A stretch of DNA of 64,000 nt from Solemya velum (GCA_048127485.1 JBHNWI010000006.1:46258358-46322357), one strand, 5' to 3'. Numbered from the stretch's first letter, positions 3,583 to 45,729 are shown. The notes: generated by a model from the sequence alone, not told the origin. Translations and numbers: made by a program.

Positions 3583-4112
3583 CTAATGAAAATAGAGAAT
3601 TATAGATGACATTATATTTACTAGAAAGTAAAAAGCATCAAATAAGTGACTTCTGTCATTATTGTTCATTATAACATATGACCACCAATAGAGCTCCAAA
3701 TCAGTATTTTAATCATCATTTACAAACCAAAATTATCAGTTAGTGACTAAAATATAATAAAGTGCCACTTATTCCTAAATGCAAGCATTTTCCTAGGTGT
3801 TTTTAGGGCCAAATATTGGATCTTTCCCAATTCAAAATACATGTACCCCTCTTGATCTTCCCAATTTCATTTTCAAAATGAGTTTTTTTTAAATACCAAA
3901 AAAGCCTACACGTGGGACTGTACAAAAACAGGCCATACAAATTTTCTGTTCTGATTTAGGTGCTTGGCCACTCAAAATACATTTTCATTTAAATACTAAA
4001 ATATCCAAATTCATCCCTATGTCTCTAATTTCCCAATTCTGTGGACTCTTCGAAAAAAAGGTTGTTGGGTCTATTTTAAGTTTGAGTTATTACAGAAAAA
4101 GGAAATACTCAC

Positions 4113-4298
4113 TGTTAGCATGATATAGACACCAAATATAAGATGAAAGATGACAAGTACAAGAATTAGTGTAACAATAGACCAGACATCAAATCCCGCT
4201 GCTACATCTATCCCAGCTGTATTTGCAATGTAGCTCATGATAGAATTTCCAGCTGCATTGAGAGCAAGGAACATGAGTGAAGCCAACACATAGATATC
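4113..4298 (-). CDS. Internal coding exon encoding two transmembrane helices; possibly M3 and M4 of the upstream channel gene
   Basis: The acceptor is attgtttcag|GATATC and the donor is ACA|GTGAGT. The 62 codons read DIYVLASLMFLALNAAGNSIMSYIANTAGIDVAAGFDVWSIVTLILVLVIFHLIFGVYIMLT. DIY-x6-F-x-AL-x-N-AA resembles the M3 start of GlyR and GABA-A receptors (AIDIW......FVFSALLEYAA). Confidence 0.45.
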
Positions 4299-5436
4299 CT
4301 GAAACAATAGTAAAAAGTGGTATTGTGCATGTAGATCTAAAGATTAGAGTCAAAACTTTCAGTTTGACCGTATCTTTGGAGAACATAACCTTAGCTATTG
4401 CAATTTACATGTATCAATTTGTAATTGTAGAATAAGATATATTTTAACTTTATATACTTATCACTATGAATTTAAGGATAGTAGCCTGTGTAGCAACCCA
4501 GGCAACGCCCAAGGATTACACCCCCCCCCCCACATATGCACAAGTCTCATGTAGCTACCAAGTGCCTATGGACACCTTTCTATTTTTGTAAGCAGCCCCA
4601 AAAGAGGAGACGTCGGAGGGTGAATTGAACATTCATAGGATCGAAACTGGTGTTGAGATAACCAAACCCAAAAGAAAATACCTGACTGTACTGGGCAGGT
4701 AGGAGCAAAGATAATCAATAGCATGAGATGAATCCAGATGAGCAAGGATTTGTCATAGAAATGCAAAAAAAGAAGAAGATGCGCATCCTAGAAAAGGAGA
4801 CAAAGCCAGTGGCAGAATATCAACCATCCAAAAAAAAAAAAATTGGAACTAGAGACACCAAGACTGAAGGCAGATAATTCAGAGTGGAGGTCCTACCCAT
4901 GCGCAACAAAGCTATTGGTGATGTGGCTGCTGGTGTAACATCAGAATGTCATATCCTGTATTACAGGACATCAACCCCAGTCACATACTGACCCTGGGTT
5001 AACCAGTCCTTGAGCAAACCTAATATCGGGTGCTCGACAGGCACCCGCAAAGAATACTAACTGGAAAGACCAGACCAGTTGGAACCTTCCCATCCTCCTT
5101 GACCTCCCAGTTATTGAGCGGGAGCTACATCCACAAGGCCACAGTGTCGGTAGCTCACGATTACTGGAAGACGGTAACCAACAGGCAACCAAAAGCAACA
5201 GATACCATACATAGTTGGGAAGACGCCTATTGACATATGCCATGTTGGAGAAAGCGATTGCTGGAGCAAGTTTCACCTGGATGTAGTGGTTCAAAGCACT
5301 GTAAGCCAGACCCCGGAGCTCAAGACAACCTACAGTAAGCAAAAATAAAAGTATAAAAGTCGGCAATGCATGGAGCGGTTACAACCAAAAGGTTGAGTAA
5401 GTAATAAGTGGGACTATAGCAGAGAAGAACCACAGG

Positions 5437-5768
5437 TTGGTTGGTTGATTGGTTAACTAGTTTAACATCCTGTCTAGCAATTTTTCAGCTGTTAAGAAAT
5501 GTATGCAGTGTTTGTGCGTGCGTATCATATGTGTCTGCTTGCGACAGTGTGCACTCTTGGCGCTCTTTAGAGTGCTGCCTCACTGGAATGCCATATTATA
5601 CTGACACCGGGCCGACCAGCCGTTGTGCTAACCTTCGAGTCGGACGTCTGACAGGCAACCACAACGAATACCGATTTGAAAGAATTTGGTTTGTCCCGGC
5701 CTCGAACCTGCAACCTCCCAGTCACCAAGCAGATGTCCTTACCACTAAGCCACGGTGCTGGTGAAGAA
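5437..5768 (-). mobile_element. SINE family A copy
   Basis: Reverse complement of the 51772 copy. On this strand the tail appears as (TTGG)n at 5437-5456. Confidence 0.75.
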
Positions 5769-7089
5769 CCACAACCAACTGCAGTAGAAACATAATGGAA
5801 ACACAACAACAATGGAGCAGAGGGAAACGTGTGTCACTCCAAGACGGTACTAAGAACCGAAAGAATCAGAATAGAAAGCCTACCAATAGGATAGGGATGG
5901 AGATAATCCTGGATAACTGCCAACAAGTCATTGGATACCGACAAACACAGGTACAATACAGCGCGACGATCAGCGCAATGAGTTTGGGAGGCAAGGAGTA
6001 TTAGTGATATTTCACTGAATGGGGTGTAACAGACAGGCCAAACAAGTGCACCATTCGAAGACTGAAGGTACAGAGGCGTCCAAAGCACACCCTTCATGCC
6101 CAACTAAATTGAACACTGGGAGCAGTTCCCATGCCATAACCCACGGATGGAGCTGTATCATAGACTGGTGGTAACACATAACACCGTAGCAAAAGAGCAG
6201 GGAGATAGCTCTTGATGAACCCACCCTGGTGTGAGTGGGATCGACGATAATTGCACAGAAAATGCATCAAGAATGTAGCAAATAGTTGAGGTGAGAGAGT
6301 AGACAGCATGGTTCAGCGTCGCAGTCACTCAGACATTCGGTCCAATAAAGGACTGGTGGGAGAGGAGCACCAATTCATGGTGTAAAGACAACAAATCATT
6401 GGAAGACTTGGTCGTCCGATTTTCCTCCGATCAAACAGACATAGTGTTGATGAGAAGTGAACCAAAAATTAAACCAACCAGTCACAGTTGGGTTGGACTC
6501 TAGTTGATGTACCAGAGAAATAACCGGAGAGGTCGAGTCTGGAAGACAATCCAATCCAACAGCAAACAACTAAACAGAGGAATGCATGTCACGTGAGAAG
6601 TGATGACAAGACTGACCACTGCACTGTCAATACTCCCAGGGTTCCAACAATCTCACCTGAATGTGACAGGGAGAACAAATCTGATGAAGCTATGGGACAT
6701 TATTAATGTTACAAGAATGATGATATCCGCGGTTCCTAGCCCTCGTCTTGAACACAGGTGACATTGTGTGGAGTAAAGTAGCATCCGCTATGGGCCAGCA
6801 ATTATTTTGCCCCCCTGCCAAATTTCATTGCAATGCAACAATACTTTAGTAATTATTGTGTAAAATGTTCCCCACAGTGCCTGTACACATGTATTCTGCC
6901 ATCTGGATGACAAAGCAAAAACCGAAACTCATCACTGAACCAACAAGAGCACCGCAAACGGTACATAATACGTGTGTGCTTGAGTTAACATAGCCACCTA
7001 ACAGTGAGAGCCATACTCACTAAAGATATTTCATTGACACTTCAAAGAGACATGCAGCACTATAACTAGGTACAGTTGCATGTACCACT

Positions 7090-7810
7090 TTCATGACTTT
7101 CACTCAAATGTGCGAGAGTCATGAATGTGTATGCCACACTGTGCCTAGTGGTGGTGCATGTGTGTATGAAGTGTTGTCGAAATATCTTGAATGGTTCAAA
7201 AGTTATAGCCTGGACAAGCAAAGACCATATTCGACTTTTGACCTTGAACTTTGACCTTGACTGTTGGACATGAATGTGTCACACTGCACTGTGCCTAGTG
7301 GCGGTACATGTGTGTATAAAGTGTTGTCGAAATATCTTGAATGCTTCAAAAGTTATGACTCAGACAAGCAAAAATCATATTTGACCTTTGAACTTGTAGT
7401 GAGGGTCATGAATGTGGTATGTTACACTGCACCTAGTAGTGTTGCATTTGTGTATGAAGTGTCATTAAAATATCTTGAGCGGTTCAAAAGTTATGGCCCG
7501 GACAAGTATTATGTTCAGTAGTTTATTGTGACCTTGACCTTAGAGCGAGAGTCCTGAATGAAGTACGCAACACTGCACCTAGGGGTGTTGCATGCGTGTA
7601 TGAAGTGTCATCATAACATTTTGAGCGGTTCAAAAGTTATGGCCCGGACAAGTATTAGGTTGAGTAGTTCATTGTGACCTTGACCTTAGAGCAAGGGTCA
7701 TAAAATGTGGTACGCGACACTGCACCTAGTGGTGTTACATGTGTGTATGAAGTGTCGTCGTAATATCTTGAGTGGTTCGAAAGATATGGCCTGGACAAGC
7801 AAATACCATA
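7090..7810. repeat. Satellite: about 145-bp unit, 5 copies, with direct TGACCT repeats
   Basis: The anchor GCCTAGTGGTGGTGCATGTGTGTATGAAG recurs at 7145, 7295, 7430, 7578 and 7722. Confidence 0.8.
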
Positions 7811-8290
7811 TTTGACCTTTGAACGTGAATTGTGACGTCGACCTTGAGGTCACATGGCTGAGACATGAACCCGTTTGAGCTATAGTCATCCCCAACCCAC
7901 ATATGAAGTTTGATCGAAATCCAATCGTAAATGAAGACACTAGAGTGATGACAAGCAATTGTTTACGGATATTTGACCTTCGACCGTGAATTGTGACGTC
8001 GACATTGAGGTCACATGGCTGAGACACGAACTCGTTCGAGCTATGGTCATTCCAAACCCACATATGAAGTTTGTTTGAAATCCGATCATAAATGGAGACA
8101 CTAGAGTGATGACAGGCAATTCGAGTATTTGACCTTTGACAGTGAATTGTGATGTCGACCTTGAGGTCACATGGCTGAGACAAGAACTCGTTTGAGCTAT
8201 GGTCATCCCCAACCAACATATAAAGTTTGATCGAAATCCGATCATAAATGTAGACACTAGAGTGATGACAAGCAATTGTTTACGGACGGA
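7790..8290. repeat. Second satellite: about 160-bp unit, 3.2 copies
   Basis: The anchor GTCACATGGCTGAGACA recurs at 7842, 8000 and 8167. Confidence 0.8.
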
Positions 8291-9100
8291 CATACGTACG
8301 GACGCAGGCGATACCATAATACGTCCCGTCAAGACAGGGCGTATAAAAAAGTCTCCATCTCACTTGAGTTCATACCCTGACTGACAACAACATTGTTGTT
8401 GAAGGGCTGGGCTTTCAAATTAACGCCATGAATAGGCATGTAGTCCTGCATTCCATGAAAAGTTCTGGACAGTCTGTGCTCATATCCTGCGCAAACCTGG
8501 ATGTCATAGAGGATGATATTATCTTCACTCAAACGTTGCCGATTGTTAAATAAAAGTTGTTCCTCCATATGAAAATCATGTTTTTCTTTATACTATATCA
8601 ACTTTTACTAATGCCACTTAAAAAAGTTACCTACATTATTTGACTGTGAACACTAATTATACAGCTGTGAACACTGTTTTAAATTAAAGAACTAAGTGAG
8701 CACGCTCACATACCCCACGCCCCCACATTGATGGAGGAGCAGGTTTAAGGTTGGAGATTGTCATAAATTGATAATGCAAATAAAAACAATACAGCCGACT
8801 TGGACTGTATTTTTCTCTCCAGTCAGGTTGTATTTTTCTCTCTGGTTAGGTTGTTGTCTCTTTGACACACTCCTCATTTCCATTCTTATTTTAATTGAAT
8901 ATTAGGATAAGAATCTCCTAATGACAATCAAGTCTGGTTGAAATATGATTGAAATATTGACTGTGTAAGGTAAATCACACATGTCTGATTAGAAAATACA
9001 AAGTATTAAATGCATACCATTAAATCTTAAATTTTTTATTTGAATAGCAGTTTGTTGGGAATATGGAACAGGAATTACTCTAGCAATACAAACTGTCATT

Positions 9101-9589
9101 TCAGACATATATATGGTCAATACAGGAGCCAGATATATGAGTTGGTGAATGCACAACTTGACAGAAATCCTCTGATGCTAATGCTTTTATTAAGCAGTTA
9201 TTTGGTTCTTTCAAAATATTGACATTGAAGTCACCTATAATCACAAAAGGAAGTGTATCCATTTTTGTCCAGAACTTGAAGAAGGTTTTTAGTAAAGTTT
9301 TTAAGACCAATCCATGGAGATCTATACACATGAAGTACTAAAATCAAGTATGAATGCCTTCCTGCCTGGAAAAGTTCATATTCGATTCTTTTATGTTGAA
9401 TCTGTTCCTGTAATGGATGTAATGTCCATTGAATTGAAGTGTAAGTACAAAAACCGTCATAAGGCAGTTTACTGATTTTGATGTGATCACTATTGTAACA
9501 TGATTCTCATAGGATACCATTGTTGTATTTGTAATATCAAAGTATTGATGGTGCATGCATGAATACTTGGATTTGAAAAGTGGATCCAT
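9101..9589 (-). mobile_element. LINE AP-endonuclease (EEP) domain relic
   Basis: FVIIGDFNVN...SCIDHIYV are the GDFN and S-x-IDHI motifs of LINE AP endonuclease. Confidence 0.45.
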
Positions 9590-11590
9590 TTGTGCGTAAC
9601 TTTTCGCTTGGCACCACTGCTAGGGGGAAGTGTCTGCTCCCCCAATTTATTTCATCGCATACAGATGTTTAAAACACCTACTTTTGAAAATTTGAGACAA
9701 GAATAGATTTAAGACTGGAAAATCATATGTTAGCAACACGGTTTCAAAGGGCTGCTTTGTGTGCTTTTGTCATCAGCGGTTATCCCAGTACACTCATACC
9801 AAAGGAATGTTTCATGATAACTAGAAGTGCTTCCCAGTTAAGTTGGAGTTTGTCAATGTTGACTTTGAAATTCACATGTGGAATTATGCAATTGTGCCTC
9901 ATATCAAAATTCAACTTCAATTACAGAATACAGAAATCAGAACTGTTCAAACAACAAAGTATGTGTGCAGCTGCCATCCCATATCAATCCATGCGCTGCC
10001 CAAAATAAAATAGTGATTTCCCCAATTCCTGTTCACTGATTGGTACAGAACACATTACAAGGCAACATCTGGAACATGTTCGTACTGAGTAGTGCCACAG
10101 TATTATTTCCTTTAGAGAGGAACATATTTTATAGTCGAGATTTTAGGGAAATCGGTCTGTTTACCTGTCTCAAAAAGGCCCAGGAAGGATGCCTGAATCA
10201 TACAGCACACAACACCTGGTACATTATCAACATAAATATGCAACCATAAATGGAGTGTTTAGCTCTGACTTACCAAATAGGTCAGATACGAGATAGTTGG
10301 AAGGCTTTGTTTAACAACAAGTTTGAAAGCCACAGCTGTAAGGAACAAGGTGATAGTAACTGCCAATCTGTCTGCTGATCCAGGTTCAATTGAAAATGTT
10401 GAGAAAGCCAAGCTAACAATCATCAACTGGAAATTAAGTAGAAATTGTTATGTATCTGACATTTTTCTTGCAAATAATGTTAGAATTAAATGTAAATATT
10501 CAAAATTTCTAACATGTAACAGTCAGAATAGTTATTTTCATATAACTAATAATTTCATTTGCAACCAAAAGAATTAAAACTGATAAACAATTAAAAAAAT
10601 GTTTGTATTTCGCAATCTCTCATTTTTTATGAGAGTGGTCACTTTCATTATAGTCATGGAGCCTGGAAGGGTCCTGTATGCACCGGGATGTAACCTCACT
10701 TTAGCTTCAGATCTTGCTAAAAGGCAGTATGGACATTTTTAAAAAAGTCGGTCACGCATGCCAGATCTGGTCCAATTTCCAGCACTTTGAAATGCAAGAT
10801 GTCTTAGATGGCTGCCATCCAAAAATTATATTTTCATAAAATTATTAGTATTTGGTCGATAAGTATGTCAAATAGGAGCTCTTGGCAGGGACAACATATC
10901 TCTGAATTTGGAAGACCACACTGAGCACCAAAGTAAATCTACAGCGGGTGCCATATTGTTCAATATCTCTATATACATGAAACAGCCCTAATATCCATTT
11001 CAGTGAAGACTAGGTAAAAATGGTGGGTACTGTTGGAGAGCCCAATTTTTTATTTGTTTGCCTGAGGTGGTGGTTGTAAATTGGTCATCCCTTTTGTGCA
11101 AAACTGATATAAGTGGTTGACAACTAAAAATTAAGCAATGGCAACAGGTGTCTCATGCTGAATCCTTGTGTATAATTGGTCCCTTCTTCACTTCAAATAG
11201 CATATGAAAGTGTCCATATGTTGTTTGTGAAGGGAGACCCAAACCACTACCATTGATGTCTATAGAATTTTATTTGGTACAATGGAACCTTACTAAAAAG
11301 GCAATTGTTCCCAATATACTAAGAACACTTTTTTCACATCTGATTCAAGACAGCACTCAGAACAGCTTTTTTCGGTAACTTATTCAAGTACACATACTAG
11401 TATGTTAACACAGTAATTGTTAGATACTGGTCCTAAAAATAATTAATGATGCAGTTAATTATTTTAACACTAGTTTAGACATCTGTACAACCACTGAGTA
11501 ACAATATGCGAGGTACATACATTTATATAAATATTGCATAAAATTTATGAGTATCTGTTGCATATTTAATAGTTGCCAGAAAACCCTTAC

Positions 11591-11845
11591 CATTATGAAG
11601 ACTATGTTCCACATGAAATAACCAATTTTCCTGGAAACTCTGCACTGGACATGTAGGATTGGATGTACTGTAGAACTCGCATACTCAACTGTTGTAATGT
11701 CTTTAAATGATTCCACATGTTTGTAGATTTTCCATTCCTGTGCATCCATGAATGCATTCACATTGACTGAACCTAGAGATGATTGGTCCTCGATCAAATG
11801 TATTTGCTCTATCGACCGCTCAGTAGAGATTGATATGGTTAGATC
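11591..11845 (-). CDS. pLGIC exon: beta8-beta10 and the pre-M1 segment
   Basis: The acceptor is aataatttcag|GATCTAACC and the donor is ATAATG|GTAAGG. The 85 codons are open and end ...VQCRVSRKIGYFMWNIVFIM. This resembles the pre-M1 R-x-x-G-Y-Y/F motif at the start of M1. The FP-to-R distance is 76 aa, matching GlyR. The exon is phase 0 to 0 and is compatible with the upstream exon. Confidence 0.65.
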
Positions 11846-13008
11846 CTGAAATTATTTAGTCAATCATGTTAATAAATTTCACCATCAGCAGTAATTCTAG
11901 TTACACTATAATACCATGTCGGTCTCTGAAGCATATCTTTTCAATCACAGGTCCCTTGACAATAAAAAGCTTTAGATTAATACAAGCACCGCCACCTGTG
12001 AACAGGAAATAGGTCAGACTGACCCAACTACCCCAAAAGACACATCTAGGTTCATGGGGATCACTTGTGTGCAGTATAATTCCAATCCACCCAAGAGTTT
12101 AAGAGTTGTGCTCCGGTAATGAAATGTTGACGACGACGCCAGACGTAATACCGGTAAGTGATCCCTATGTCTCGCTTCTGCTTTGCAAGCGAGACAAAAA
12201 CTGAAGCAACTTGGATATGTGGAAATATCATGGATAGACACTGGTGAGTTGTGATATAAGAAAAAACAAGCATTCTGAGAATATTGTTAGGCAATACAAT
12301 GTCCCTTATCGGTGGCCAATATTATCAATTACACAAGTGTTATAATCTACATCTGTATTTCATAAATTTATAGTTTTGTAGTTAGACCAAAATGGCAACT
12401 GACTCCCTGCTTAGTATAAACAGGGAGCTACTCATTCTGCTCTGTGGAGCATCCTGGGGGTTGTATGTATGGGTGGCATTCCATGAAAAACTCACCAACT
12501 CCCTATCCAGCAGCATATGACGTACCTGTATTACATGAAGGGTGGCTTATACTGCTGTCTGCACACATGTGGTGAAGGGGATACACATAGGCCTGCTGGA
12601 GCTTCTTAGCTATATCTCGTATCGTAAAGGGCCTGGACTGTACTGCCCAGTTGTAATGACTTATTGTTATAAATCCTTTTTCAAAGTGATCCAATCCATC
12701 CAAAATTGGCAGGAAAATTCACAAATGAAAGAGTGTGGATTGAGAAATATGTGGCATTCATCTTCTAAAATTTATGCTGCTGGATTCACCCCCCCACCCC
12801 CCAAGTTTTTTCTGAGGTCCTATATTCTCATAGGTATCTTTTCCATTATGCTAGGGTGAGCGTTCAGAGCCCTCAGAGTTTGGATATTGAGAAAAATGTA
12901 TTACCGGTAGTCACAGTACTGGCAGTGGTATGTAATAATTTATTAATCTGATCATTACCTATGTTTTTATAAGAGAAAAACTTCAAATTTAACTCACTCA
13001 CTACTCAC

Positions 13009-13215
13009 TTGAACATCCACAGGGAAATGCTCCAGTTCCAAATTTTCTCTAAAAAAACCTTTCAATCTCCAGAACTGATAAATGAGTGGATTTTGGTATC
13101 CACTTTCTGCAAATCGAACTTTATATGATTTTCTATTCAATAGTGGTTCACCGTCACAGTTCAGCACTGTGAGTTTAGGGTCCCAATAATTTTTAATATC
13201 GAAGTCCTTCAGATC
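13009..13215 (-). CDS. pLGIC exon: loop A (W-x-P..N) through the Cys-loop region, with both Cys-loop cysteines absent
   Basis: The acceptor is ttttttttttattcccccaag|GATCTG and the donor is CAA|GTGAGT. It encodes DLKDFDIKNYWDPKLTVLNCDGEPLLNRKSYKVRFAESGYQNPLIYQFWRLKGFFRENLELEHFPVDVQ. YWDPKLTVLN fits the W-x-P-[D]-x4-N loop A motif. FPVDVQ fits the FP-x-D-x-Q Cys-loop core. The W-to-FP spacing is 54 aa, as in GlyR and nAChR. The residues at the two Cys-loop positions are E and L. Confidence 0.65.
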
Positions 13216-13960
13216 CTTGGGGGAATAAAAAAAAAACATTTTTATAACAATGACAATAATTTGAACTAAACACTATCAAACAATAATGACCAAGCTCTAG
13301 GCGGTACATGCATTAACAATATGTTGTCAAAAGCCAAACTATCAAAATTCTCAAATTATAAGGAATTATGTATTTAAATTGTAATTCAAATGTACAAATT
13401 AAACTTGTTTAGAAATTAGAGTAATACATGTAATAAAGTTACAACACAACACCAGTACTCATCTTCAGATGTATCATTATTCAGACATAACTAATATATT
13501 GTATGGGGAAGGGAGGGGAGGGGGAGTCGTCATTCTGACAGTAAGACACAAGAGTGAGTGACTAGAGGAATTGTGCTCAATCTCTTGCAGTTACCCAATT
13601 ATAATACAGTGGCTGTGTATCCAAGTCCTTTTTGGTACTAAACTACGTACTATGTCCATCTTCACATTGACACAAGTAACGTTTTCTTTGTAGTTTAGAT
13701 ATGTTGTTTGGGGATGTACTCAATTTCAACATGTGAACAAGAAAATATTCTAACTAGAGTCCCATCTTTATAAAAAGACGGACGGGCTTTCCTATTCTTT
13801 TTCTTTCTTGTGGGTTCTTTTAAAAAAAACATTTATCCACCAACAAAACTACATACCTACTAAACACATACACAAACAAGCTGGCAAGCAAACAATAACT
13901 ATTTACATACTTAATTACCTGTACACATAAACAAACCAATTAAAACAAATACATGCATTT

Positions 13961-14080
13961 ACACACACACACACACACAGAGACACAGACAGATTTACAC
14001 AGGCACAGACACACACAGAAACAAACAAGCTAGCCATCCAGCTAGATAGCTAATAAATAAACAAACAAACAAACAAACAA
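13961..14080. repeat. Compound microsatellite (CA)n, (CAGA/CACAGA)n, (CAAA)n
   Basis: Direct reading. Confidence 0.8.
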
Positions 14081-14550
14081 ATTTATTTAAAAACATGCAT
14101 TTCAATACAGAAGTTCACTTATTTTCGCGAAATATGGATGCCGAGAATCATCTAAGTAATGCTCATATTGGTACAAATTCTTCCAGTCAAATGATACAGT
14201 GTGACGCCACATACGTCCATCTTTATGCACCACATTGCATGTTACTTTTGACATTACAACCATAAGTAGTTGTAATGCCTAAACTCTGTATCCAACGCTC
14301 CTCCAACAGTAAACGACAGAGCTTGCTGTCATCTGGTAATGTCTTTACGATCACTATCCGTAACTGAAAGTCAATTGCAATTGAACATACGACAAACGTT
14401 CTACAAACAGTACCGTTCACATTGTCAATTTCGACAACTGCTTTTTTTATCGCCAATTGATTTAACCATAATGAACTCACCTCGTTTGCGTTGTCTGAGT
14501 TGCAACCGTGTCAAAATGTCATAGAATAGAATTCGTACCACTGCATCTAA

Positions 14551-14640
14551 GTGTAAAATTTTTTTTGCTAGTACGTAACGGGAATCGAACTCGGTTCCCC
14601 AGTTCAAAAATTCTACACTCTACCAATTGAGCTAAAGATG
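14551..14640 (-). pseudogene. tRNA-like sequence with an A-tail (retroposed tRNA pseudogene or SINE head)
   Basis: The minus strand reads TTAGCTCAATTGGTAGAGTG...CCGAGTTCGATTCCCG and then AAAAAAAA. The D-arm and T-arm boxes are present but the anticodon stem does not pair. Confidence 0.3.
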
Positions 14641-15649
14641 AATCGTTAATATTGAGCTAGTAGCACTTTTATCTAAAAGGAGATGATCTAGTATCCATCA
14701 CCGATGTATAAACATTGGATTGACAGTACTTACAGACCTTGCCTCTATAGGAACTAAAAGCTGGTTGACTTGAAATAGACATGCAGTCAACTATTATGGG
14801 TATATTTGCCCATATTGCGCTCCTAAGTCTTATGTTATGATTGTCTCCCTTGTTAATGGGAAACAACTGAAAGTCGATAGAACATACAGGTTTTTCAATC
14901 GAATACTACGTTTAAGTCGTGCTTTCAACACGTAGAAGAAACTAATAACTATTTAGTCCATGTTCAACTCTGTATTGTTAACACACTACAGTCATGGGAA
15001 TACAGTACATACTACCAAACAAACAGTTCAGATGCAAGCGGCGATGTATCGCCGATGATTGCTCTACAAACGACACTGTTTACTTTGGACAAATGTATCC
15101 ATTGCATTCTGCCATTTGATTCAACTACATTGAACTCGCTTCGTTTGCAATAACACAAAACAACATAACTCACATATTTGTAGAAATCTAGCTTGGCTGA
15201 CCTTGTCTTTGCGTCGGCAACAATAAGAATAGCTATTTGTCACATTGAAATTTGGCATAACACCGCAAAACCACGATTGCACTACGCCGCAGTCTATAAA
15301 GTCTTAGTATGGGAAACGAAAGGCTGAATAGTCAGTTTTAGTCATATTACAATCAACTACTTAATGTTGTTATTGCATTTGAACAGCAAGATTTCACAGA
15401 AATCCCACATATCATTTATTTCTCTGGTTTTACTCTTGAACACCTTTTCCCACATAGTTTCTCTTTATGTATAAACTGATCATGGTTTTATTTATACATT
15501 AACCTGGTTAAATCTCCAACATAAAGAAAATACGCGCGAGACGGGGCCATTCTGAATTCTCCCAACTGGTCGTAATGCTAAATCAATGGGAAAATCATTT
15601 TAAATATGCTAGGTCCTAAAACTTTTCCACTCTTTTTTTTTTTTTTTTT

Positions 15650-16790
15650 TTTTTAAGCTTAGTTTGTAGTCTCTGAGTTGAATCGGCAACAAACTCTTTG
15701 ACCTTAACCTCATGTAGCCTTGACCTTAGCGAAATTTAAAATTCTAAACATGAAGTGTACAGACAAATAATAATAAAAAGAATTTTTCGCCAGTACAAAA
15801 GCAATAGCCCTAATTATATCTCGGCCATTTTTAGAGATTTCGGAAAATAAAGTTGTCAGAACGGTTTGAAATACCCGTTAGATAATATTTAAAAAAAATT
15901 TTTTGGAAAAGCTCAATATTTAAAGATTTGGCAAAACTTGGAAAAATTTTCGGCCTATTGCAAATCGCAGTCAGGGGACCACTTTGAACGCTTATAACTT
16001 TTTTTTGACGCCCCGACGTTAGTGACGATTTTTCTGACAGCCGATCCCCGGTCACTTGTGCATCGTAATACACGAGAATCATAGTGATATAATCTACTAT
16101 AATGTTTTTATAGCACCGCGAATGGGTCTGCCCACCCCAATTTAACCTAGTTCACAACGCAAGTACAGATTTTCAAGCAACATTATCTCCTGATCTATAA
16201 GAGACACACAGCTCAAACTTTGACATCTAAGACTACAACCTAATGGTATCATAATACGGGTCTTACAACATCCCACACCCACCGTTATCTAGTAATCGTG
16301 TCACAAAAATGAGACAAATAACAAACTTCAAAGTCGATTTACACTCAAACAACTCAACCTATCTCAATACTAAAAACAGATTCTCAAACGCATCCCTCTC
16401 CTCTACACATCTAAAAAAACTCCCATCAAAATATCTCAAAATTCAAAAACTTAAAAATTTTAAACTTTTTAAAATTTTAACAACTCTTTTGTCAATGAGA
16501 TAAACTTCCTCACCTCCTCCTGTATTTTTTAGCTTAGTTTGTCTTGTAGTCTTTGAGTTGAATTGGCAACAAACTTTTTGACCTTAACCTCATGTAGCCT
16601 TGACCTTAGCGAAATTTAAAATTCTAAGCATGATGTGCAAATCTAGGTCTTGTAGCCATTGTACCCTTCAAATCTCATCATCATAACCCTAATACTTTCA
16701 GAGCTACTGAGACCACAAAAAGTGTACAGACAAATAATAATAAAAAGAATTTTTCGCCAGTACAAAAGCAATAGGTCTTTTCTCTCTGAG
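15650..16790. repeat. Pair of roughly 170-260-bp direct repeats (15650-15815 and 16530-16790) flanking about 730 bp; possibly a TRIM/LARD-like miniature LTR element
   Basis: Both copies read TTAGCTTAGTTTGT..GTAGTCT.TGAGTTGAAT.GGCAACAAACT.TTTGACCTTAACCTCATGTAGCCTTGACCTTAGCGAAATTTAAAATTCTAA.CATGA.GTG...AATAATAATAAAAAGAATTTTTCGCCAGTACAAAAGCAATAG. Confidence 0.4.
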
Positions 16791-17119
16791 GGAAAGCCCT
16801 AATTATTCAGTTGGTGAAGGACCCATGTCATTATCATGCTCCTTTCTGGAGAAGTAGCAGTAAGAAGAGTTCCAAGCTGGCTGCTATGTCAGCTATCTAG
16901 AAAATCTTGCGACATGAATTTCAATTATGCACAACTATAGAGACCAAGGTAAAATATATCATAGTAGCCCTATGAGAAAGTTATGAATCAGGCCGTGCCA
17001 TTGGAGGAAAGTGATCACTCTCATCCTGAACTTATATATCACTCTCCTCAGGATCAAAGTTTAAATGGAGCTTCGATACAGGAGAGCACTACCAATCAAC
17101 TGGAAACTGGATGGGGAGA

Positions 17120-17443
17120 GCAATGTTGTTCTTGATTGAGTAGAGAACCGTAGGCCATAGGCCCATATGTTCTTGAGTGAAGAATATAGGGAAAGATGGA
17201 TACAGGCCGAACCGGGTAAAGCACTCTGGTCTTTATTCAACAGAGCCAGCCTGGTTCTTTATAGTGCCCCGTGTAAAGCACAGATACACTAGACCTCGGT
17301 TTAAAGTCCCTTCCAAACGACTATAGGTCACCCCGAGGTCGAAGACCTCTGAAAAATCCAACTGATCAACCGGGAATAGAACTCACGATCACTGCATCAT
17401 AAATCGGATGCACTACCGCTGCGCTATCGGGGCAACTGGGGGA
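17120..17443 (-). mobile_element. SINE family B copy
   Basis: Reverse complement of family B. The TSD is TGGGGAGAGCAAT at about 17108-17120 and 17446-17458. Confidence 0.75.
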
Positions 17444-17612
17444 GAGCAATTTTCCACTCTCCTGCCCTTTTTGATTGGCAAGGCCTGTAAATGGTATAGG
17501 AGGAGTAGCAGTAACAAAAGTTCTTGAACAATGATGATGACAGACAAAATTAGATCAGAAGAGCTCACTTAAGCATAGCTTAGATGAGGTAAAAAACTAA
17601 ACCAGGGCAAAC

Positions 17613-17741
17613 CTCAATAGCTATGTTTTTCAAAGCTGGCTCCTGCCACTTTGCTTGAATAAATATTTCTGCTTCAAATTGTTGTGTGACTGTATCAATG
17701 TCAGTGATCTTCAGAAATGTAGCGCGTGCTTCAACCATCAC
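17613..17741 (-). CDS. Exon of a pentameric ligand-gated ion channel (Cys-loop superfamily) gene: beta1-beta2 region of the extracellular domain
   Basis: The minus-strand acceptor is taatttttcag|GTGATGG. The open frame reads VMVEARATFLKITDIDTVTQQFEAEIFIQAKWQEPALKNIAIE. This matches the conserved V-x-V...I/VDE-x-x-Q....W-x-D-x-x-L segment of pLGIC extracellular domains. The donor is GAG|GTTTGC and the exon is phase 0 to 0. Confidence 0.55.
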
Positions 17742-17876
17742 CTGAAAAATTATGTGAAGCACTTCTTTAAGAGGTTTTAGATAAAAATATCAAATTTTCT
17801 CTAGCTATTGACCAAAAAAATATATAGTCTATTAAACCTATAAATATTTAACTGGTTTCATTTTCTACACAATGGT

Positions 17877-18095
17877 TTATAATGCAATGCCTTGTGTGTA
17901 TAGACGAATATTAAATCCTTTTAGTAGATCATATTCTTCATAAGTTTGATTGATAAATGTTTCAAACATATCTTGAAATAGATACTTATTTTTACTTGCT
18001 GTTTTCTGAATCAGGATCCCTCCCATGTCTCTCTTTGTCAGACTCAGAATAATCCTCCATCTTACAAATGCGAGGCAGTAGATCAAAAGTTTCAT
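17877..18095 (-). CDS. Candidate N-terminal coding region for the same channel gene (signal-peptide-like MKLLIYCLAF... plus a helix-like segment); the exon structure is unresolved
   Basis: ATG at 18095 (minus strand) opens MKLLIYCLAFV... Either a GTAAGA donor follows F10, or the ORF continues to ...FNIRLYTQGIAL*. No phase-0 donor was found that joins to the 17741 exon. Confidence 0.2.
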   Translation of the reverse strand: MKLLIYCLAFVRWRIILSLTKRDMGGILIQKTASKNKYLFQDMFETFINQTYEEYDLLKGFNIRLYTQGIAL

Positions 18096-18166
18096 AGTAA
18101 AAGAATTGTGGCTTACCTCCTACCACCAAATATCACTGACAGTCATGAATAAAAAAAAATTAATTA

Positions 18167-18167
<1 letters not shown>

Positions 18168-18205
<38 letters not shown>

Positions 18206-18215
18206 AGCACAGAAT
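18168..18215. repeat. (TA)n microsatellite
   Basis: Direct reading. Confidence 0.85.
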
Positions 18216-19309
18216 TTTGATCTAAACAATAGCATGTCAAACTCGTTGTCACAACTACAATTACCATGATAAATCGGTGTATAATCAAAGAATGCTAGTC
18301 ATTCTGCCACGGATTTCTATCATGGCCCAATCATGAACCAAGTCATTTTACTCAGTCTCAGACAACTGTTTCAAGAAAACACTAAAAATGCTTGAAATGT
18401 CAAGTATAAACTGGGTTTAACATTTTGGTCCACTCGCACTGGTACTTAGCTTTCATTTTCAAAAAAACAAAATATGACTATCGGTTTGTATTTATTTGGT
18501 TGTTTGATGGTAAACAACTTGGACTGTGTTTTCCAGCTCATATCAGTAAACAGGATACATGGTTTCCAGCAGATGTGTAATTTGGAGTGTAAACTTTCAA
18601 CAGCGACAATCGATGCAAAAATTGAATTGAATTGAATTGAATTGAATGGGTTTATTGTTCCATCAGCACATTAAGGCTATATCGGGACAATCAATGGTAC
18701 TGGAGAAATAACAATGTGATAGGAATGTCAATAAATTAGAAAGATATATTCACAGAAGATAGGATTTAAAAGATTATATGATGGGATGATAATATAAAAG
18801 ACCGAAAAATGAAATTGTCATAAAAAATTATTAGTGCATAAATAATTGAGAGTGTGCTAAGCAGCCACACCTCAAACAAAATTTGTAGACATAACATAAA
18901 AAAGTTGACTGAAAAAAGTTCGGTAGTTCTATTATAGGATGTTATGTTTAGATATAACGCTAACAGATAAAAGTACAATAAAATTACAAAAAGGGTATTA
19001 TACATTAAGCTTAAAAACGGATATATCATAAACGGACCACCGATGGGGACCCCAGATAAATCCATGTCTTCAGTGTCTGACTCTGGGGCCAGGGCACTAA
19101 AGCGATTACTCGGCGGATCAACAGTTCCCGAAGGAAGTCTGCCAATCCGTGATGTGTGAGAAGTCGCGCGGGGCAACTTACTGGAGCAAGATCTACTGGT
19201 GGTAGAAGTAGATCTTGCTTTCACCATTGTCTCCGCTGATGTCACAGGTCGGATTGGTGAAATATGTTTCCGTTGATTAGTGTTATCAGAAGATTTTTGG
19301 ACTGTAGTC

Positions 19310-20089
19310 TTATGCATGGTACTTAGTCAGTACGGGTTCAGAACTCCCAAGTTTCTGCAAAGTGCTGGTAGTTTGACAAGAGATGGATCTGGTAACAGTT
19401 TTACGGGAGATGCGTGGTGTATCAGCTGTGGTCTGACAACCGACATGCTTTGCTGCTTGTGCATACGATGAAGTAGCATCTGTGGCAGCACTGCAAGTGT
19501 GAACAATCCTCCTCGCCTCGGGGTACGAAAGACGTTGTAGGGTCTTCAGATGTTGAATGTCTTTCTCAAACTTCCATTCCCTACAATCTTTAGAGAAGGA
19601 AGGATGAGAACCTCTACAATTCACACAACAAGCATCTGCCTTACAATCCTCACTGTTGTGGTCAGGATGACCACACTTTGCACAATTCTTGCAGTTAGCC
19701 TTGTGATGACAAAATTTTTGACATTGGAAACATCGCAACGGGTTCGGTATATAGGGTTCAACTCGCAAGTTCAAATAGCCGATATGGAGACTGATAGGTA
19801 AAGTAGGGGTTGAGAAAGTCAAAATAAATGTATTAGTAGCAATGGTGGTGATACCTTTTTTCAGGGTTATTCGTCGAGCATCGGCGACGTGGACAAAAGA
19901 CTCTACAATTTCCGCTTCTGTTGCATATTTCAGGTCTGAGGAGCAAATGACGCCTTTACACGAATTTAAAGTCTTATGTGGAGCAACTTTCACAGATACA
20001 TTCACAAAGGATTTCAGTTTGAGGTAGTTGGAAGACTGTTGTTTAGATGTACATTCAATCAACAATGCACCGGATGAAAGTTTCTTCAC
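19310..20089 (-). mobile_element. Non-LTR retrotransposon ORF1 (gag-like) with three CCHC zinc knuckles; the element lacks recognisable ORF2
   Basis: CFQCQKFCHHKANC, CAKCGHPDHNSEDC and CVNCRGSHPSFSKDC each fit C-x2-C-x3-4-H-x4-6-C. LKKGITTIATNTFILTF is typical of ORF1. After the ORF1 stop, AT-rich non-coding sequence follows from about 18990. Confidence 0.7.
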
Positions 20090-21015
20090 AGAAGATGGTT
20101 CACCCGCTGTACTTTTGAGACCTTTATGAATTACAAATGGAGAAAGTGTACCGAGCCTTTTGTCTTGGGGATTGGTATCTTCAATGAGAAGAAATCGGGG
20201 TCAATTCCTGTCAGTATGTGGGGTTGCTTGGTCGATGTCCATAGAGTCAGAAGAGGGAGAATCCTCTCAAGAGCGTTTGAGATTTTGTGTTTTTTTACCC
20301 ATGATGAATTATCTATTTTTCATCACCCGTGCTCCCCGCCCGTCATCGAGCCCAACGCTGGGACACAATGCTACAGGGCAGTGCCCAGTGTAGCACCCAT
20401 GCCAGGGTTACACAGGTGGAATACTCAAGTGGAATGATACAACGTTGTGGGTGAGGAAATATATATAATAAAACATACATAGTATCACACACAGTGAAGA
20501 ACAATGACACTCGATTGACCCTATGCCATCAACCATATGAGCTACGTATGGGAAGCAATATTAAGCAAAAGTTTATCAGGAAGCACTATTGACGACAAGT
20601 CAGGGAGAATGCTCTGATCGTAGTAGTATGTGAAGTTGCTCATATGGTATGTTTGACTAGCCGATTGATCCGTGCCGGGCCCAACCTGGACCACCCGTCT
20701 GGTCGAATACGGGGCCAAAATGGCGTGTTGGAGAAATGGTCAAAATCCTATAGTACACAAGGGGGGTGTACCATAGATCCCCACCTCCGCTGACACGGGT
20801 CGCAACCCACGGCAAACAGGTTGACCCTTTTTAGTCGCCTCTTACGACACGCAAGAGGATACGGCGGGCTATTCTACCTCGGAGACCACTCGGGGCATCG
20901 ATGCAAAAAAGAAGGTGATTAAATTTGAAATTCTAAACTGTTTCGAATATATAGTGATCTATTTTGGAAGTTTTTAGATCAAAGGTTTCAAGTACATGTA
21001 TATTCCAGTATTTAC

Positions 21016-21446
21016 CTTTTCCTGTCCTGTAGAAGATTTATGGGAACTGAGTGATACAGATCTACTTGTATCAGACTTCGTGCCACGACCCTGAAGATTT
21101 AAAGTACCAAGAACATTCAGCATATCATTCATCACACTGTTGTTCCTCTCAAGGTAAGATGTCAGATGTCCAAGCATATCAATCATCCTCGAATCGGAAC
21201 TACTACCACTCTTGGGAACAGAATCTGTTTCATCATGATGCGAATGTTTGTGTAGTATTTTGGATTTCTTAGGACTAGTATATTTGGAATCCTCCATATA
21301 AGAAGTGGTATTTGAGTGGGGGTGCTGTTGCTGTTTCTCTATGCTTGATGGATTGCGCTCAAGCACAGGATCTTTCCAGTCTGGTACAGCAAATCCAGAA
21401 CTGCTTTGGTCTACATGTATGTCAGAAATTACAACACATTCATCAT
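21016..21446 (-). CDS. Coding exon of unknown gene: Ser/His/Lys-rich, low-complexity, probably disordered
   Basis: The acceptor is tttatcattgcag|AT and the donor is AAG|GTAAAT. The 143 codons are open and read ...DECVVISDIHVDQSSSGFAVPDWKDPVLERNPSSIEKQQQHPHS...HKSSTGQEK. Confidence 0.4.
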
Positions 21447-22690
21447 CTGCAATGATAAATTAAAACATTAACATCTTTTTTCAATTTCATCTCATATCTT
21501 TATTTTGTGAACCAAAAAATAATTTAGCTCTAGTAGGCACATGTCAATTAAATGTACACAGAGTGAAACACTGAATATATGCTGGTTCAACGGCTTCAAG
21601 GCTGAATTATCTTTTTCAAGAACTACTGGTACTGAAGGAGTATTTACTACATTTCAAAAGCATGAATGCATTTTTAGTCATGTCAGCATTATGAGCACAT
21701 TTCTCATTACATATGTGTGTCTATACATGTATATAACTGTATCCAAAACTTCTTGTTGCACACCATTTTGTTTCGTCAAAAACTGGCATTGATTACTCAA
21801 GAAAGCCAAGTTTCAGAAGAAACAGAATGGTGATCAACAATGCCTGCAGAATGTTGAATTAGATTTGTATATACTATTTGCTCATTGACGAGTTAGGGAA
21901 TGAAACAATCATAAATACATTTTAATGCAATTCGTATGTGTATTCTCATCGGCTACACTGGGGACCATAGAACTATTGACTTAGAATTTCTACAAATAAT
22001 TTAGAGATTGTTCATCTCAGAATTAGTGAATTGAGCCTTTTAAGGGCCAGCTTCACATTACTGAACCGAATTTACACCTCTTCTTTTCTTGTGCCCAAAG
22101 GGTCAATGAAACAAGGGAGTGGAATTTTCTGATATAAATTTAGAACTTTTTTATTGGCGGAATGTAGTTTTCTCTGTAGAATGAGATTTTGAAGAAAAAC
22201 CCATATGACCTGCAGTTGTCCCTTCAGTTTGTATATTTATATATAAATTGCTCATACTCCTTGTGTTTAATTAAAAATAAAAACCTGTTCATTTTTTAGA
22301 CTCTAAGTCTAATGTGCATGAAGATTAGCAGTAACAAGAATTTAATAACAACATCGCAAACAAAGCATTATATCAACCTGCCAGCAGTATAGTGAATAGA
22401 TAAAGAAGATAAATGTATGGAAATCTACAGTACATATTTGAAGTAGAACTATACATACATATAAGATGTATAAGTCCAATACCAAGCCACTGTTCACATA
22501 TCGTTCACATTGGCCAATATTTATCAAAGATATTGAACAGAAAGTTTCAACCAATCAGACTGCAATATACTAGTGAGATAAGCATGACATGTCAAATTAT
22601 AAATCCAAAGACCATTATGGAACAAGTCCACCAAAAATCAATGGACCTAAACGTAATTTAAACTTGAATTGCCGATCTTAAATACATACC

Positions 22691-22854
22691 CAGTGATTGG
22701 GAAGGCCAATTTACTCAATGGGCTTTTTGGTGGTTTTCCAAAATTTGAATGGGCCATTCTTTATATAAGTCAAATAACCTTTTCACTTTTCAATAGGCCA
22801 TTTTTCAGAAGCAATGGGCAAATGACCCATGGCCCACTTCCTTCCCAATCACTG
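22691..22854. mobile_element. MITE with TIR CAGTGATTGGGAAGG; a second copy lies at 28489-28692
   Basis: The two copies are about 85 percent identical. Each ends ...CCTTCCCAATCACTG. The second copy has an internal duplication. Confidence 0.55.
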
Positions 22855-25800
22855 ATACCTGGGTTACATGCTCGAAAACAGTTCAATATCTCAACTCATT
22901 GCCCAAAAAATTGAAAAACTGCATACAGTTGGATGTTCCATTTTTAGTGGTTTATGGGTTGTTTCTTTTATTCTTTTTTTAGCTCCTAAACAAGAAAAAT
23001 AGGACCTGACGGATAAAGGGGACATTCCCATTACTTCCATTTTAAACCTAACCAATCAAACCTTGGATGTTGATGCTGACAGACAAACACTGAAATGGGA
23101 GCTCATAGAACATGTTCATTCATGATTATGTACGGACAGAGCTGAGCTTTTAAGATAGATGAGGTGAGGTGAGGATGATTTGTTTTGGAGGCTTGTTTAG
23201 CACAATTACATCTATTATTCAACAAATTTCAATACAAATTTTTAATTTATGCAGGAAAGTGACTACACTGTTGGTGAGTTATGTACTCTCCTCTAAATAA
23301 GGTTTCAAATGTTGGAAATTACCATCGAAATTACCATAACTCTCATCCCCACTGCTATCTTTTTCATCCACATGCTACTTGTTAATAAGCTGTGAAAATG
23401 TAAAATAGTCCAAATCATTGAACATACTTTTCACATACTTGAGACAATACCAAGTCATCTCCGCCATTTAAAAAGTCCCTGTTCAACAAATCATTTGCTC
23501 TGTAGTCTGACAGTTTTGTAAAGCTGGCATTGAGTCAAAAAATGCCCTTGCAAATCGGGAAACAGAATGAAAAGCACATGGGTCGCCTTATTTGAATAAC
23601 AATTTATGCATGTCGAAACAAAAAGACTACTAAAGATGCTAATAACAATCGCATTTTCAGTGCTAACAGTTGATTCTCAAAATATTAATTCAACTGAAAC
23701 ATTTGCAGTCACTGTGATGAATGTGAATGAAGCAAACATGAACACTGACAAATTTCACTTATGAATACATGTAATTCATTAGTGCTCAACTTGCATTTTT
23801 GCATGTGATCGATTTCCAGACAGCTTTTTGAAATATAGTGCATTTAATTTTAATTTATGAAACACATATTCATATGCTAGTACTAGTGTACACCAAAAAT
23901 AAATAGTACATGTATGTGACAAATTAGATATACAACTGTTGGCTTGATGTATGAGAATTGGAGAAGTGAAGGGGCAGACCTTCAGTCTCCGCCCCTTCGT
24001 GTCTCCAATTCTCGTACATCACGCCAACAGTTGTATATCCATTACATAATAAATGAGAACTACTGGTAATAATAATGTTGGACAGGTGAAGTTCTACAAG
24101 AGCTGCAAGATGTTCCTTTGCAAATGAAACAGCGATCAACTTATTAACACATTTGTTCAATGACCCAGTGTAAGTATGAATTTCATTCATACACCTTCTA
24201 CACATGCACTTAGTTGTCCTGTTCATAACTGTCACAATTTCATAGTTCCATATGTTCATGTCTGGTCATAATATAAAAGGCTCCAAATTATGTAGGGACG
24301 GGATATTTGTTTCATGTCTGCATTTTTTAGGGGATGGATGTGGCAATAGAAGTTTCATATCTTTCTGTATGTGTGTATCAACAGATTAAAAAAGCTGATT
24401 GTCAATGATCTAATATCTAGATTGGAAATACATTGTATAAAAAATTCACAAGTGGTTACGTTCGAGACATTGAGAAAAGTTCAATAGAATTTCAAACTCA
24501 ATTTTTGATCCAGATATTACACATTTCGCGAGTTCTTGGCTTCACCATGTGAGCTAATAAAACAACCACCAATTCCACACGTAATTCTTCATAAAAACAT
24601 GCACCGGTACAATAATAATCATCTTACTGAATCACATGCTTTTCTATCTTCAATTTTGATTCAAGAACTTGTATCAGTTCTGCACAAAATGGTTCTCCAG
24701 TTCCCCCCTCCACTACCTTCGTCAAACAAAAAAAAAGATCTACAAAATAAAGACATCAGTTGTGTAGAACTGGTATTTGATACTATGAAATGCTTTAATT
24801 CTGTAGAACATTGACACTAGAATTAAATTGGTATTAAAATTGGGTCTGTGTGATAAAATGATGTTGAGAAAGAAAACAATGCTATGTTGAAAGATTCACA
24901 AACATACTAGCCAGGTTCATGTAAGTGGAGAATGAGGGGAGCTTTAATATCCACAATCTTAATTACCCACAGTCGATTTTATTTTCAATTAATCTTCATC
25001 GTGTGTACCTTAAACTTAGAATCTAATGATTCAAGAGAATCTAAGCTAACATTTTGGTTCAATACATCATACTCAGTACTCTCTGTTAAATTTAGGACAA
25101 TTAATTTTGCCAGTGAATTTGCAGATTTCATTCGTTGTAGTAAATATATAGAGATTATATCATTAAAAATGTATTATCATTATTTTTTCAATCGAGTTAG
25201 TTAATTGTACAATTTAAAACCTAAGGCTTTACCAACTGCAAGTGCTTAAAAATGTACAAACATCGTAATCAACGAAATTGAAAAAAATTATGTGTGATTC
25301 AACATTTATGGTGATATAAACTGTTTCTCACACAACACATTCAGCATTTTATGTGCCTGAACCATATACGAACCGACAAAGGAATGGGTAGTGACACCAA
25401 CTTTGCTGCCATCTCATGACGTCAAGTACATGCATACAACATCACGACTGTCAGTAACTGACCAAAGCCAATGAGAGAGCTTGAACAACTGTTGTTAATC
25501 ACTTACCTCATTTTTGATATGGCTGTAAAATGTTGTTTATTGCTATGAACTATTCTTTATAACTTTTTATGTAAATGAGTCTAGTTGTTTAACATATAGC
25601 AGTTATGCGAGACTCATTTATCAGTGCAAGTTGTAAACAAAGAACTGAGTTTGAGCTTTTGGGACACAGCTCTGAAACTCAAGTTATTTAGTGTTAACAC
25701 TGTTATTGAAATACTTTTAAGACTACATGTCTTGTATACATTTTTTCCCCTTTTTATTCTTTGAAACAAATAAATCTGGGAAATACCTCTGGTTTTGGGA

Positions 25801-45570: not shown

Positions 45571-45596
45571 TCCACCCGACGTTGAAATTAAATTAT

Positions 45597-45683: not shown

Positions 45684-45729
45684 TGGCACTACTGGGCTTC
45701 CGTAGAAATGGGAACATGAATTCGTAGTT

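Follow-up and report, generated by a model that had tools for sequence, protein, structure and literature searches.

Results

Gene structure and coding exons

The window examined here, 64,000 nucleotides of Solemya velum chromosomal DNA (GCA_048127485.1, JBHNWI010000006.1:46258358-46322357), carries on its minus strand a gene of nine coding exons that extends over 31.8 kb (34596..2785; positions are counted from the first letter of the window). Its sequence supports the identification of the product as a subunit of a ligand-gated ion channel of the pentameric class (pLGIC) lacking both cysteines of the Cys-loop. The original prediction, made from the DNA alone, had proposed such a channel on the basis of three minus-strand exons (17741..17613, 13215..13009 and 11845..11591), three of the nine now recognized, and had not remarked on the missing signal peptide. 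These three exons are as described there: each is in phase 0 between an AG acceptor and a GT donor, the acceptors are pyrimidine-rich, the two introns between them measure 4397 and 1163 bp, and the joined translation of 197 amino acids reproduces all of the quoted peptides (VMVEARATF...KWQEP, YWDPKLTVLN, FPVDVQ and RVSRKIGYFMWNIVFIM).

The gene was extended in both directions by tblastn with mollusc homologues, followed by inspection of splice sites. The downstream exons noted as missing were found, with the membrane helices M1-M2 at 10426..10274 and M3-M4 at 4298..4113; the proline expected in M1 is not present in its sequence. At the other end the gene had been taken to reach 18095. The ATG at 18060 lies outside the gene, and the true upstream exons are at 21446..21016 and 34596..34500. 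Use of ATG 18060 as a start was rejected, as the only GT donors available to it are in phase 2 and give no in-frame join to the exon beginning at 17741. A (TA)n microsatellite of about 17 repeats is located at 18171-18204, just upstream of this spurious ATG.

The first model comprised 449 residues, and all residue numbers given below (W148, Glu194, P202, Leu208, R278 and others) refer to it. A profile search returned the GenBank entry KAL5021572.1 (P0033; 531 residues), titled ‘hypothetical protein ScPMuIL_000727 [Solemya velum]’, which is 100% identical to the model and has 82 additional N-terminal residues. These stem from the lengthening of exon 1 to the acceptor at 21447 and from the added exon 34596..34500; the translation of the resulting nine-exon assembly matches the entry exactly. 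The gene is already in GenBank, annotated yet unnamed. All eight introns are GT-AG (0.5-13 kb), the reading frame is unbroken across the nine exons, and the GC content of the gene span, 33-43%, is similar to that of the remainder of the window. A look-up by exact protein found no S. velum transcript contigs covering the splice junctions, for which the support is thus indirect.

The first annotated coding exon (34500..34596) begins with an ATG at 34596-34594 in the context caaaATGG, the exact N-terminus of KAL5021572.1. It encodes MAKFTKMPPQVASANIRAKYKRSHTQNDTDMQ plus one base and ends at the phase 1 donor CAAG/gttatt. Its product is hydrophilic and has no signal peptide; the exon is not conserved in orthologues and its use is putative. 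In exon 1 (21016..21446, acceptor AG at 21448-21447) the 449-residue form begins at an in-frame ATG, 21297-21295, that aligns with the start sites of orthologues. The N-terminus encoded here is hydrophilic; the exon also specifies a conserved amphipathic helix (model residues 33-68) and a linker rich in Ser and Thr. There are two candidate starts, the GenBank one at 34596, adding 82 non-conserved residues, and ATG 21297 near the orthologue starts. If the acceptor at 21447 were joined to a non-coding upstream exon, an out-of-frame ATGATG at 21446 would open a five-codon upstream open reading frame (MMNVL and stop).

Exons 2 to 4 are those originally noted. Exon 2 (17613..17741) encodes strands beta1-beta2 of the ligand-binding domain (LBD), VMVEARATF...KWQEPALKNIAIE, with the loop D tryptophan. 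Exon 3 (13009..13215) contributes loop A (YWDPKL), loop B (FWRLKG), Glu194 and the Pro-loop core FPVDVQ, and exon 4 (11591..11845) contains Leu208, beta7-beta10 and loop C and runs through the pre-M1 segment RVSRK into M1, of which it encodes the first half. Exon 5 (10274..10426) completes M1 and continues through the M1-M2 loop EPGSAD and the M2 pore helix into the M2-M3 linker SLPTISYLTYL; it matches Pfam Neur_chan_memb at E=6.8e-5, with a tblastn identity to orthologues of 84-88%. M3, a 21-residue M3-M4 loop with 0 Lys/Arg, and M4 are encoded by exon 6 (4113..4298), the basic segment after M4, ALKRRRVMEDKDRLYE, by exon 7 (3535..3582), and the C-terminal tail AKKYLLDKHGVLVSTTSSLILATTSVSKK, ending at a TAG stop, by exon 8 (2785..2874). 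The latter was located by a scan for an acceptor and Lys/Arg and confirmed by its identity to KAL5021572.1. A read-through of exon 7 to a stop after VIYSLTFFSS was rejected as the C-terminus, because splicing to 2874 restores the conserved KKxYxxKxG tail and agrees with KAL5021572.1.

Identity and fold of the encoded protein

The three exons first noted suffice for a match to the Pfam model Neur_chan_LBD (PF02931; E=1.3e-7, 31.7 bits against a cut-off of 26), and the full protein scores similarly (E=1e-7, 32.1 bits, same cut-off). With the membrane-domain model Neur_chan_memb (PF02932) the full protein stays below the cut-off (24.1 against 28.1 bits). Since the LBD match exceeds its cut-off and mollusc orthologues reach E=1e-103, the exon match is far beyond chance. 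A phmmer search against the sequences of PDB structures returned the GABA-A receptor beta3 subunit (E=1e-13), ELIC (1.6e-12) and glycine receptors (GlyR), with beta1 through M4 aligned.

The AlphaFold2 monomer has a mean pLDDT (predicted local distance difference test) of 73.8, with strands in residues 95-278 at pLDDT 80-93 and helices at 280-303, 309-332, 336-369 and 372-429, corresponding to the four membrane helices expected. Hydropathy likewise gives four hydrophobic segments after the LBD. Foldseek matched the model to GABA-A and GlyR chains with E about 5e-18 and target-normalised TM-scores of 0.65-0.73. The identification as a Cys-less pLGIC thus withstands comparison with the Pfam LBD model, with PDB sequences, with known structures by Foldseek and with the downstream membrane exons. 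Assembly into a pentamer with a gated pore would follow from this identity.

The motif spacings that had been reported are exact, W148 and P202 being 54 residues apart and P202 and R278 76. Glu194 and Leu208 stand seven residues before and seven after the Phe of the FP motif, as claimed, and align on the two disulfide cysteines of GABA-A beta3 (HMMER, sequences of structures) and on those of GlyR alpha1 and the nicotinic acetylcholine receptor (nAChR) alpha7. The sequences of the human GlyR alpha1 and nAChR alpha7 served only as controls and alignment partners. No alternative or duplicated exon that could supply the cysteines exists in the window, where tblastn gave single matches only, and transcript-derived orthologues carry the same Glu and Leu. 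Among about 160 relatives none has both cysteines. The first position is Glu in 80 of 91 and the second Leu in 89 of 91. Three echinoderm relatives (P0092, P0093 and P0102) have Cys at the first position and Leu at the second, that is, an unpaired single cysteine.

Of all the cysteines in the protein a single one, C274, is conserved (81% of the family), and hence no pair. It is located at window about 11626-11624 in exon 4, four residues before the pre-M1 Arg in the motif QCRVxRK. As no partner of it is conserved, it presumably carries a free thiol where the LBD meets the membrane domain. No N-glycosylation sequon is conserved in at least 30% of the family.

Residues associated with gating are retained. 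The Pro-loop F201-P202-V-D204 is present (FPxD in 88 of 91 relatives), as are the pre-M1 Arg R278 (90 of 91) and the M2-M3 Pro P334 (91 of 91). M2 has Asp at -1', Arg at 0', Thr at 6' and Leu at 9'; the 9' Leu is found in 87 and the 6' Thr in 86 of the 91 relatives, and the -1' residue is Asp in 58 and Asn in 26. In classical channels an acidic -1' residue goes with cation selectivity (discussed in PMC9874803). Because of its -1' Asp the channel is probably cation-selective.

Membership in the Cys-less clade

A eukaryotic ‘Cys-less’ clade of Pro-loop receptors dominated by Lophotrochozoa, with further flatworm, deuterostome, cnidarian and protist members, was described by Jaiteh, Taly and Henin (PLoS One 2016, PMC4795631). 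E-values, shared motifs and architecture place the protein in this known clade: the first cysteine is replaced by polar Glu and the second by hydrophobic Leu, FPxD is kept, and loop C has no Cys pair. Relatives in the profile search came from molluscs, annelids, flatworms, echinoderms, hemichordates, cnidarians and protists including a diatom, and comprise Schistosoma, Capitella, Lottia and Crassostrea/Magallana proteins. Orthologues with 50-68% identity occur across bivalves, gastropods and annelids, some of them derived from transcripts. S. velum itself has at least one paralogue (P0095).

The lophotrochozoan context put forward for such channels is borne out by PMC4795631. Their rarity is overstated, as an exhaustive hidden Markov model search yielded 458 clusters (50% identity) with E<=1e-30. 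Johnson et al. (MicroPubl Biol 2023, PMC9874803) describe the clade in schistosomes together with 182 RefSeq proteins, of a function that is not known, and report its absence from vertebrates, Drosophila and C. elegans. The remark that no pharmacology is available still applies, no member having been functionally characterised (PMC4795631, PMC9874803).

The N-terminus and the distribution of charges

A signal peptide is absent from the protein: in the 449-residue model the mean hydropathy of 19-residue windows stays below 1.4 throughout the region preceding residue 279, and the 82 residues added in the annotation are just as hydrophilic. In 69 further representatives the maximum 19-residue hydropathy in the N-terminal region was 1.38. 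The orthologue P0001 is encoded by an intronless transcript contig with an in-frame stop just upstream of the ATG; hence, the leaderless N-terminus is not an artefact of gene models. Complete members of the clade have a hydrophilic start of 20-300 residues with the conserved amphipathic helix, and some have 800-1200 hydrophilic residues before M1 without a membrane segment. In none of these members does a membrane-like segment precede M1, and the bacterial-type protein P0109 is the only relative with a signal-peptide-like start.

The remaining connecting segments show a corresponding pattern. The M3-M4 loop of the clade is short, typically 17-21 residues with 0-4 Lys/Arg. M4 is followed by 4-8 Lys/Arg within the first 15 residues (KRRR in Solemya) and then by a hydrophilic tail of 20-415 residues; that of the Solemya protein is 45 residues long with 6 Lys/Arg in the first 15. 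In the first set of C-tails a membrane-like segment was present only in the Capitella model P0082 (residues 644-662). Counts of Lys and Arg were compared between the N-terminal side (the M2-M3 linker together with the 15 residues preceding M1 and the first 15 following M4) and the opposite side (the M1-M2 and M3-M4 loops). The medians were 10 and 3, respectively; of 78 members 69 showed the bias, and of 69 others 63 did. In sum, about 150 relatives from protists to echinoderms are leaderless and have a short M3-M4 loop poor in Lys/Arg and a basic tail after M4.

The same script gave the opposite for the classical controls, with 8 vs 20 for GlyR alpha1 and 4 vs 19 for nAChR alpha7. Both controls score as having signal peptides, their M3-M4 loops are 85 and 150 residues long, and their tails measure 11-13 residues. 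In the Solemya protein the N-terminal flank of M1 carries a charge of +3 and the C-terminal flank one of -1. Applied to these values, the charge-difference rule for signal anchors (von Heijne; Hartmann et al. 1989) predicts that the N-terminus is on the cytosolic side.

The main exceptions to the charge bias are the flatworm proteins P0061 and P0065-P0070, and the schistosome M3-M4 insertion contains N-x-S/T sequons.

Repeats and other features of the window

The introns between the three exons first noted had been described as full of SINE- and LTR-like insertions (short interspersed nuclear elements and long terminal repeats). What stands is one SINE-like interspersed repeat of 314 bp (17124..17437, minus strand) in the 4.4-kb intron, outside the gene product; no LTR-like insertion could be demonstrated, and the 1.2-kb intron has no repeat in common with the rest of the window. 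Three more copies of the SINE-like element, with 88-94% identity, are found at 45726-46039, 53461-53769 and 46844-47128. Its end near 17437 resembles a tRNA box A by eye (GATAGCGCAGCGGTAG). A derivation from tRNA was not borne out, as ARAGORN called no tRNA and Rfam gave no match.

Further features lie in three other introns. In intron 21015..17742 a 296-codon open frame on the minus strand (19313-20200) shows CCHC zinc-knuckle spacing (CFQCQKFCHHKANC) as well as other clusters of Cys and His, and resembles the remnant of a retroelement gag; it has no Pfam match at E<0.01. Intron 10273..4299 contains, at 9104-9337 on the minus strand, a sub-threshold endonuclease/exonuclease/phosphatase match (E=4.9e-4, 20.4 bits against 24.5) in a short open frame, which is probably a fragment of a non-LTR retrotransposon endonuclease. 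The same intron has adjacent tandem arrays at 7424-8286 with periods of 146 and 156 bp (2.6 and 3.0 copies, 86% matches), situated in a GC-rich block (43% vs about 36%); the long open reading frames of these arrays are spurious. Within the 13-kb first intron a 165-codon open frame on the plus strand (32601-33095) gives a weak PHD-finger match below the cut-off (E=0.0015). The most GC-rich 2-kb block of the window, 44001-46000 (48% vs a background of 30-43%), overlaps one SINE-like copy and an unannotated 145-codon open reading frame.

Discussion

A possible inverted topology

We propose that the Solemya protein's ligand-binding domain is cytosolic, i.e. oriented opposite to that of classical receptors, and would give this reading, made from sequence, a probability of roughly 0.6. 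The leaderless N-terminus, the charge bias, the M1 flanks and the pattern of cysteines and glycosylation sites together predict insertion of M1 as a type II signal-anchor. The N-terminal helix, the LBD, the M2-M3 linker and the basic C-terminal tail would then reside in the cytosol, leaving nothing but the short M1-M2 and M3-M4 loops on the opposite face of the membrane. The stimulus for gating, be it a ligand or a condition, would come from the cytosol, whether the channel sits in the plasma membrane or in an organelle. A cytosolic domain would also explain the missing Cys-loop disulfide, whose absence would be a consequence of the reducing environment.

The same features recur in protists, cnidarians, lophotrochozoans, echinoderms and hemichordates, and we see a slightly better than even chance that the entire eukaryotic Cys-less branch, at least about 460 clusters, is upside-down relative to all characterised pLGICs. 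A statement that Cys-less pLGICs are devoid of a signal peptide or have a cytosolic domain was not found in the full texts, a body of literature that leaves most subscription journals uncovered, so that prior notice is possible.

Several points weigh against a cytosolic LBD. Large N-terminal domains are occasionally translocated without a signal peptide, as in neuregulin-1, and bacterial pLGICs have neither the disulfide nor glycosylation and yet a periplasmic domain, which makes the argument from cysteines and glycosylation a weak one. The signal-peptide and topology tests were hand-made heuristics of hydropathy and charge, not trained predictors. A few basic residues follow M4 in GlyR alpha1 too, the flatworm M3-M4 insertions (107-130 residues, 9-17 Lys/Arg) blunt the charge bias, and the very long N-termini may be mis-fused gene models. 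A Pfam search of 19 long members revealed no fused domain of a known cytosolic type, returning pLGIC domains and one DUF4706. Finally, the predicted cation selectivity depends on a single residue.

Every characterised pLGIC is established to have the classical orientation, an argument for a second reading. According to this the protein, a member of the same family, would have an extracellular or lumenal LBD that is translocated without a cleavable signal peptide, with M1 serving as a reverse signal-anchor or by an unconventional route, and would be a surface receptor for an extracellular ligand, as the papers on the clade assume. The fold and the coupling elements are the same as in classical receptors, and bacterial relatives have no disulfide though their domain is extracytoplasmic. 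The acidic -1' ring lies at what is classically the cytoplasmic end of the pore and is read so in PMC9874803. Planarian relatives are expressed in mechanosensory neurons and give RNA interference phenotypes, according to work cited in PMC9874803. This arrangement, however, requires that 280 to more than 1200 hydrophilic residues be moved across the membrane without a signal sequence. It conflicts with the positive-inside rule, because in about 90% of roughly 150 members some 10 Lys/Arg would face outward and about 3 inward, the opposite of the pattern in the classical controls. It would place long, Cys-free, basic and disordered C-tails of up to 415 residues in the extracellular space. A further point against it is that neither a disulfide nor a glycosylation site is conserved. 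We regard the classical orientation as possible but doubtful.

It is also improbable, in our view, that the protein has the pLGIC fold without being a ligand-gated channel on its own, i.e. that it is an accessory or silent subunit or a closed or leaky structural pore. Such a role would agree with the lack of any reported ligand or current for a clade member (PMC4795631, PMC9874803), with an M1 devoid of the proline typical of classical receptors, and with the sub-threshold score of the Pfam transmembrane model (24.1 vs 28.1 bits). However, the pore-lining residues (6' Thr, 9' Leu, 0' Arg) and the coupling residues (Pro-loop, pre-M1 Arg, M2-M3 Pro) hardly vary between protists and echinoderms, which points to selection on gating. 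The paralogue P0095 exists, yet a genome typically contains few orthologues, in keeping with homomers.

Solemya velum hosts bacterial symbionts. A recent transfer from these, an assembly or contamination artefact, or a pseudogene is very improbable and effectively excluded: the best relative by name of the Swiss-Prot type is the bacterial ELIC, and an ancient lateral transfer has been raised as a possible origin of the clade (PMC4795631), but the frame is intact over nine exons and eight GT-AG introns that contain animal retroelement debris, the GC content of the gene span (33-43%) is that of the rest of the window, orthologues at 50-68% identity are spread across bivalves, gastropods and annelids, and the bacterial-type P0109 is distant (E=1.6e-17) and of different architecture.

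In its original form the finding contributes a further orthologue to a clade already catalogued in 2016 and is of modest interest alone. Its added value lies in the clade-wide leaderless, charge-inverted architecture and in a testable hypothesis on topology. The clade, which has been put forward as an anthelmintic target, is orphan throughout, with ligand, current, structure and localisation known for no member. Should its architecture obey the positive-inside rule, this would give a simple answer to the question of how these proteins fold without the Cys-loop disulfide, as loss or primitive absence of the disulfide would follow directly from the reducing compartment. If the cytosolic orientation is true, these would be the first pentameric channels gated from inside the cell, and the superfamily would gain an intracellularly gated branch older than animals. 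Screens with bath-applied transmitters would then be expected to fail on the channels of this clade.

Comparison with known receptors

Compared with the Cys-less receptors of Jaiteh et al., the Solemya gene shows no difference at the sequence level and is another member: polar and hydrophobic replacements of the cysteines, the FPxD proline loop, the short M3-M4 loop and the taxonomic spread are common to both. PMC4795631 mentions signal peptides zero times and takes the domain to be extracellular; neither the leaderless N-terminus nor the inverted charge bias described here appears in that work. The Cys-less LGICs of schistosomes and planarians (PMC9874803) share the missing cysteines, FPxD and a polar or acidic residue near -1'/-2', and the Schistosoma relatives P0066-P0070 are strong profile matches (E about 1e-98). 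The flatworm proteins differ in their N-termini of 200-280 residues and in the 107-130-residue, Lys/Arg-rich M3-M4 insertion, compared with a loop of 21 residues and no Lys/Arg in Solemya. PMC9874803 places -2' ‘at the cytoplasmic side’ and thereby assumes the classical orientation.

The likeness to the bacterial channels ELIC and GLIC lies in the missing Cys-loop disulfide and the short M3-M4 loop; ELIC is among the best PDB matches, and the M2-M3 motif LPxISYLT is common to the clade and the bacterial-type relative P0109. Bacterial pLGICs differ in having a signal peptide, a periplasmic domain and essentially no tail after M4. Accordingly, P0109, the most distant match (E=1.6e-17), has the signal-peptide-like segment LLLLGLLTAL and a two-residue tail. 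The Solemya gene, in contrast, is a spliced animal gene; its product has a helix at the N-terminus, about 35 residues in length, a linker that is disordered and a basic tail of 45 residues. With eight spliceosomal introns, no signal peptide and this long basic tail the gene is not of the prokaryotic type.

GABA-A beta3 and GlyR alpha are the best structural and sequence matches; their Pro-loop cores (FPVDVQ vs FPMDVQ) and M2-M3 linkers (SLPTISYLT vs SLPKVSYVKA) are nearly the same. They differ by their disulfide, signal peptide, PAR anion motif and long basic cytoplasmic M3-M4 loop. The Solemya protein is not a Cys-loop receptor in the strict sense, having neither the paired cysteines 13 residues apart nor the signal peptide, nor a long basic M3-M4 loop combined with a short C-terminus. 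Its -2'/-1'/0' residues are A-D-R where anionic receptors have the PAR motif, and the distribution of Lys/Arg in the classical receptors is the reverse of that in the Solemya protein.

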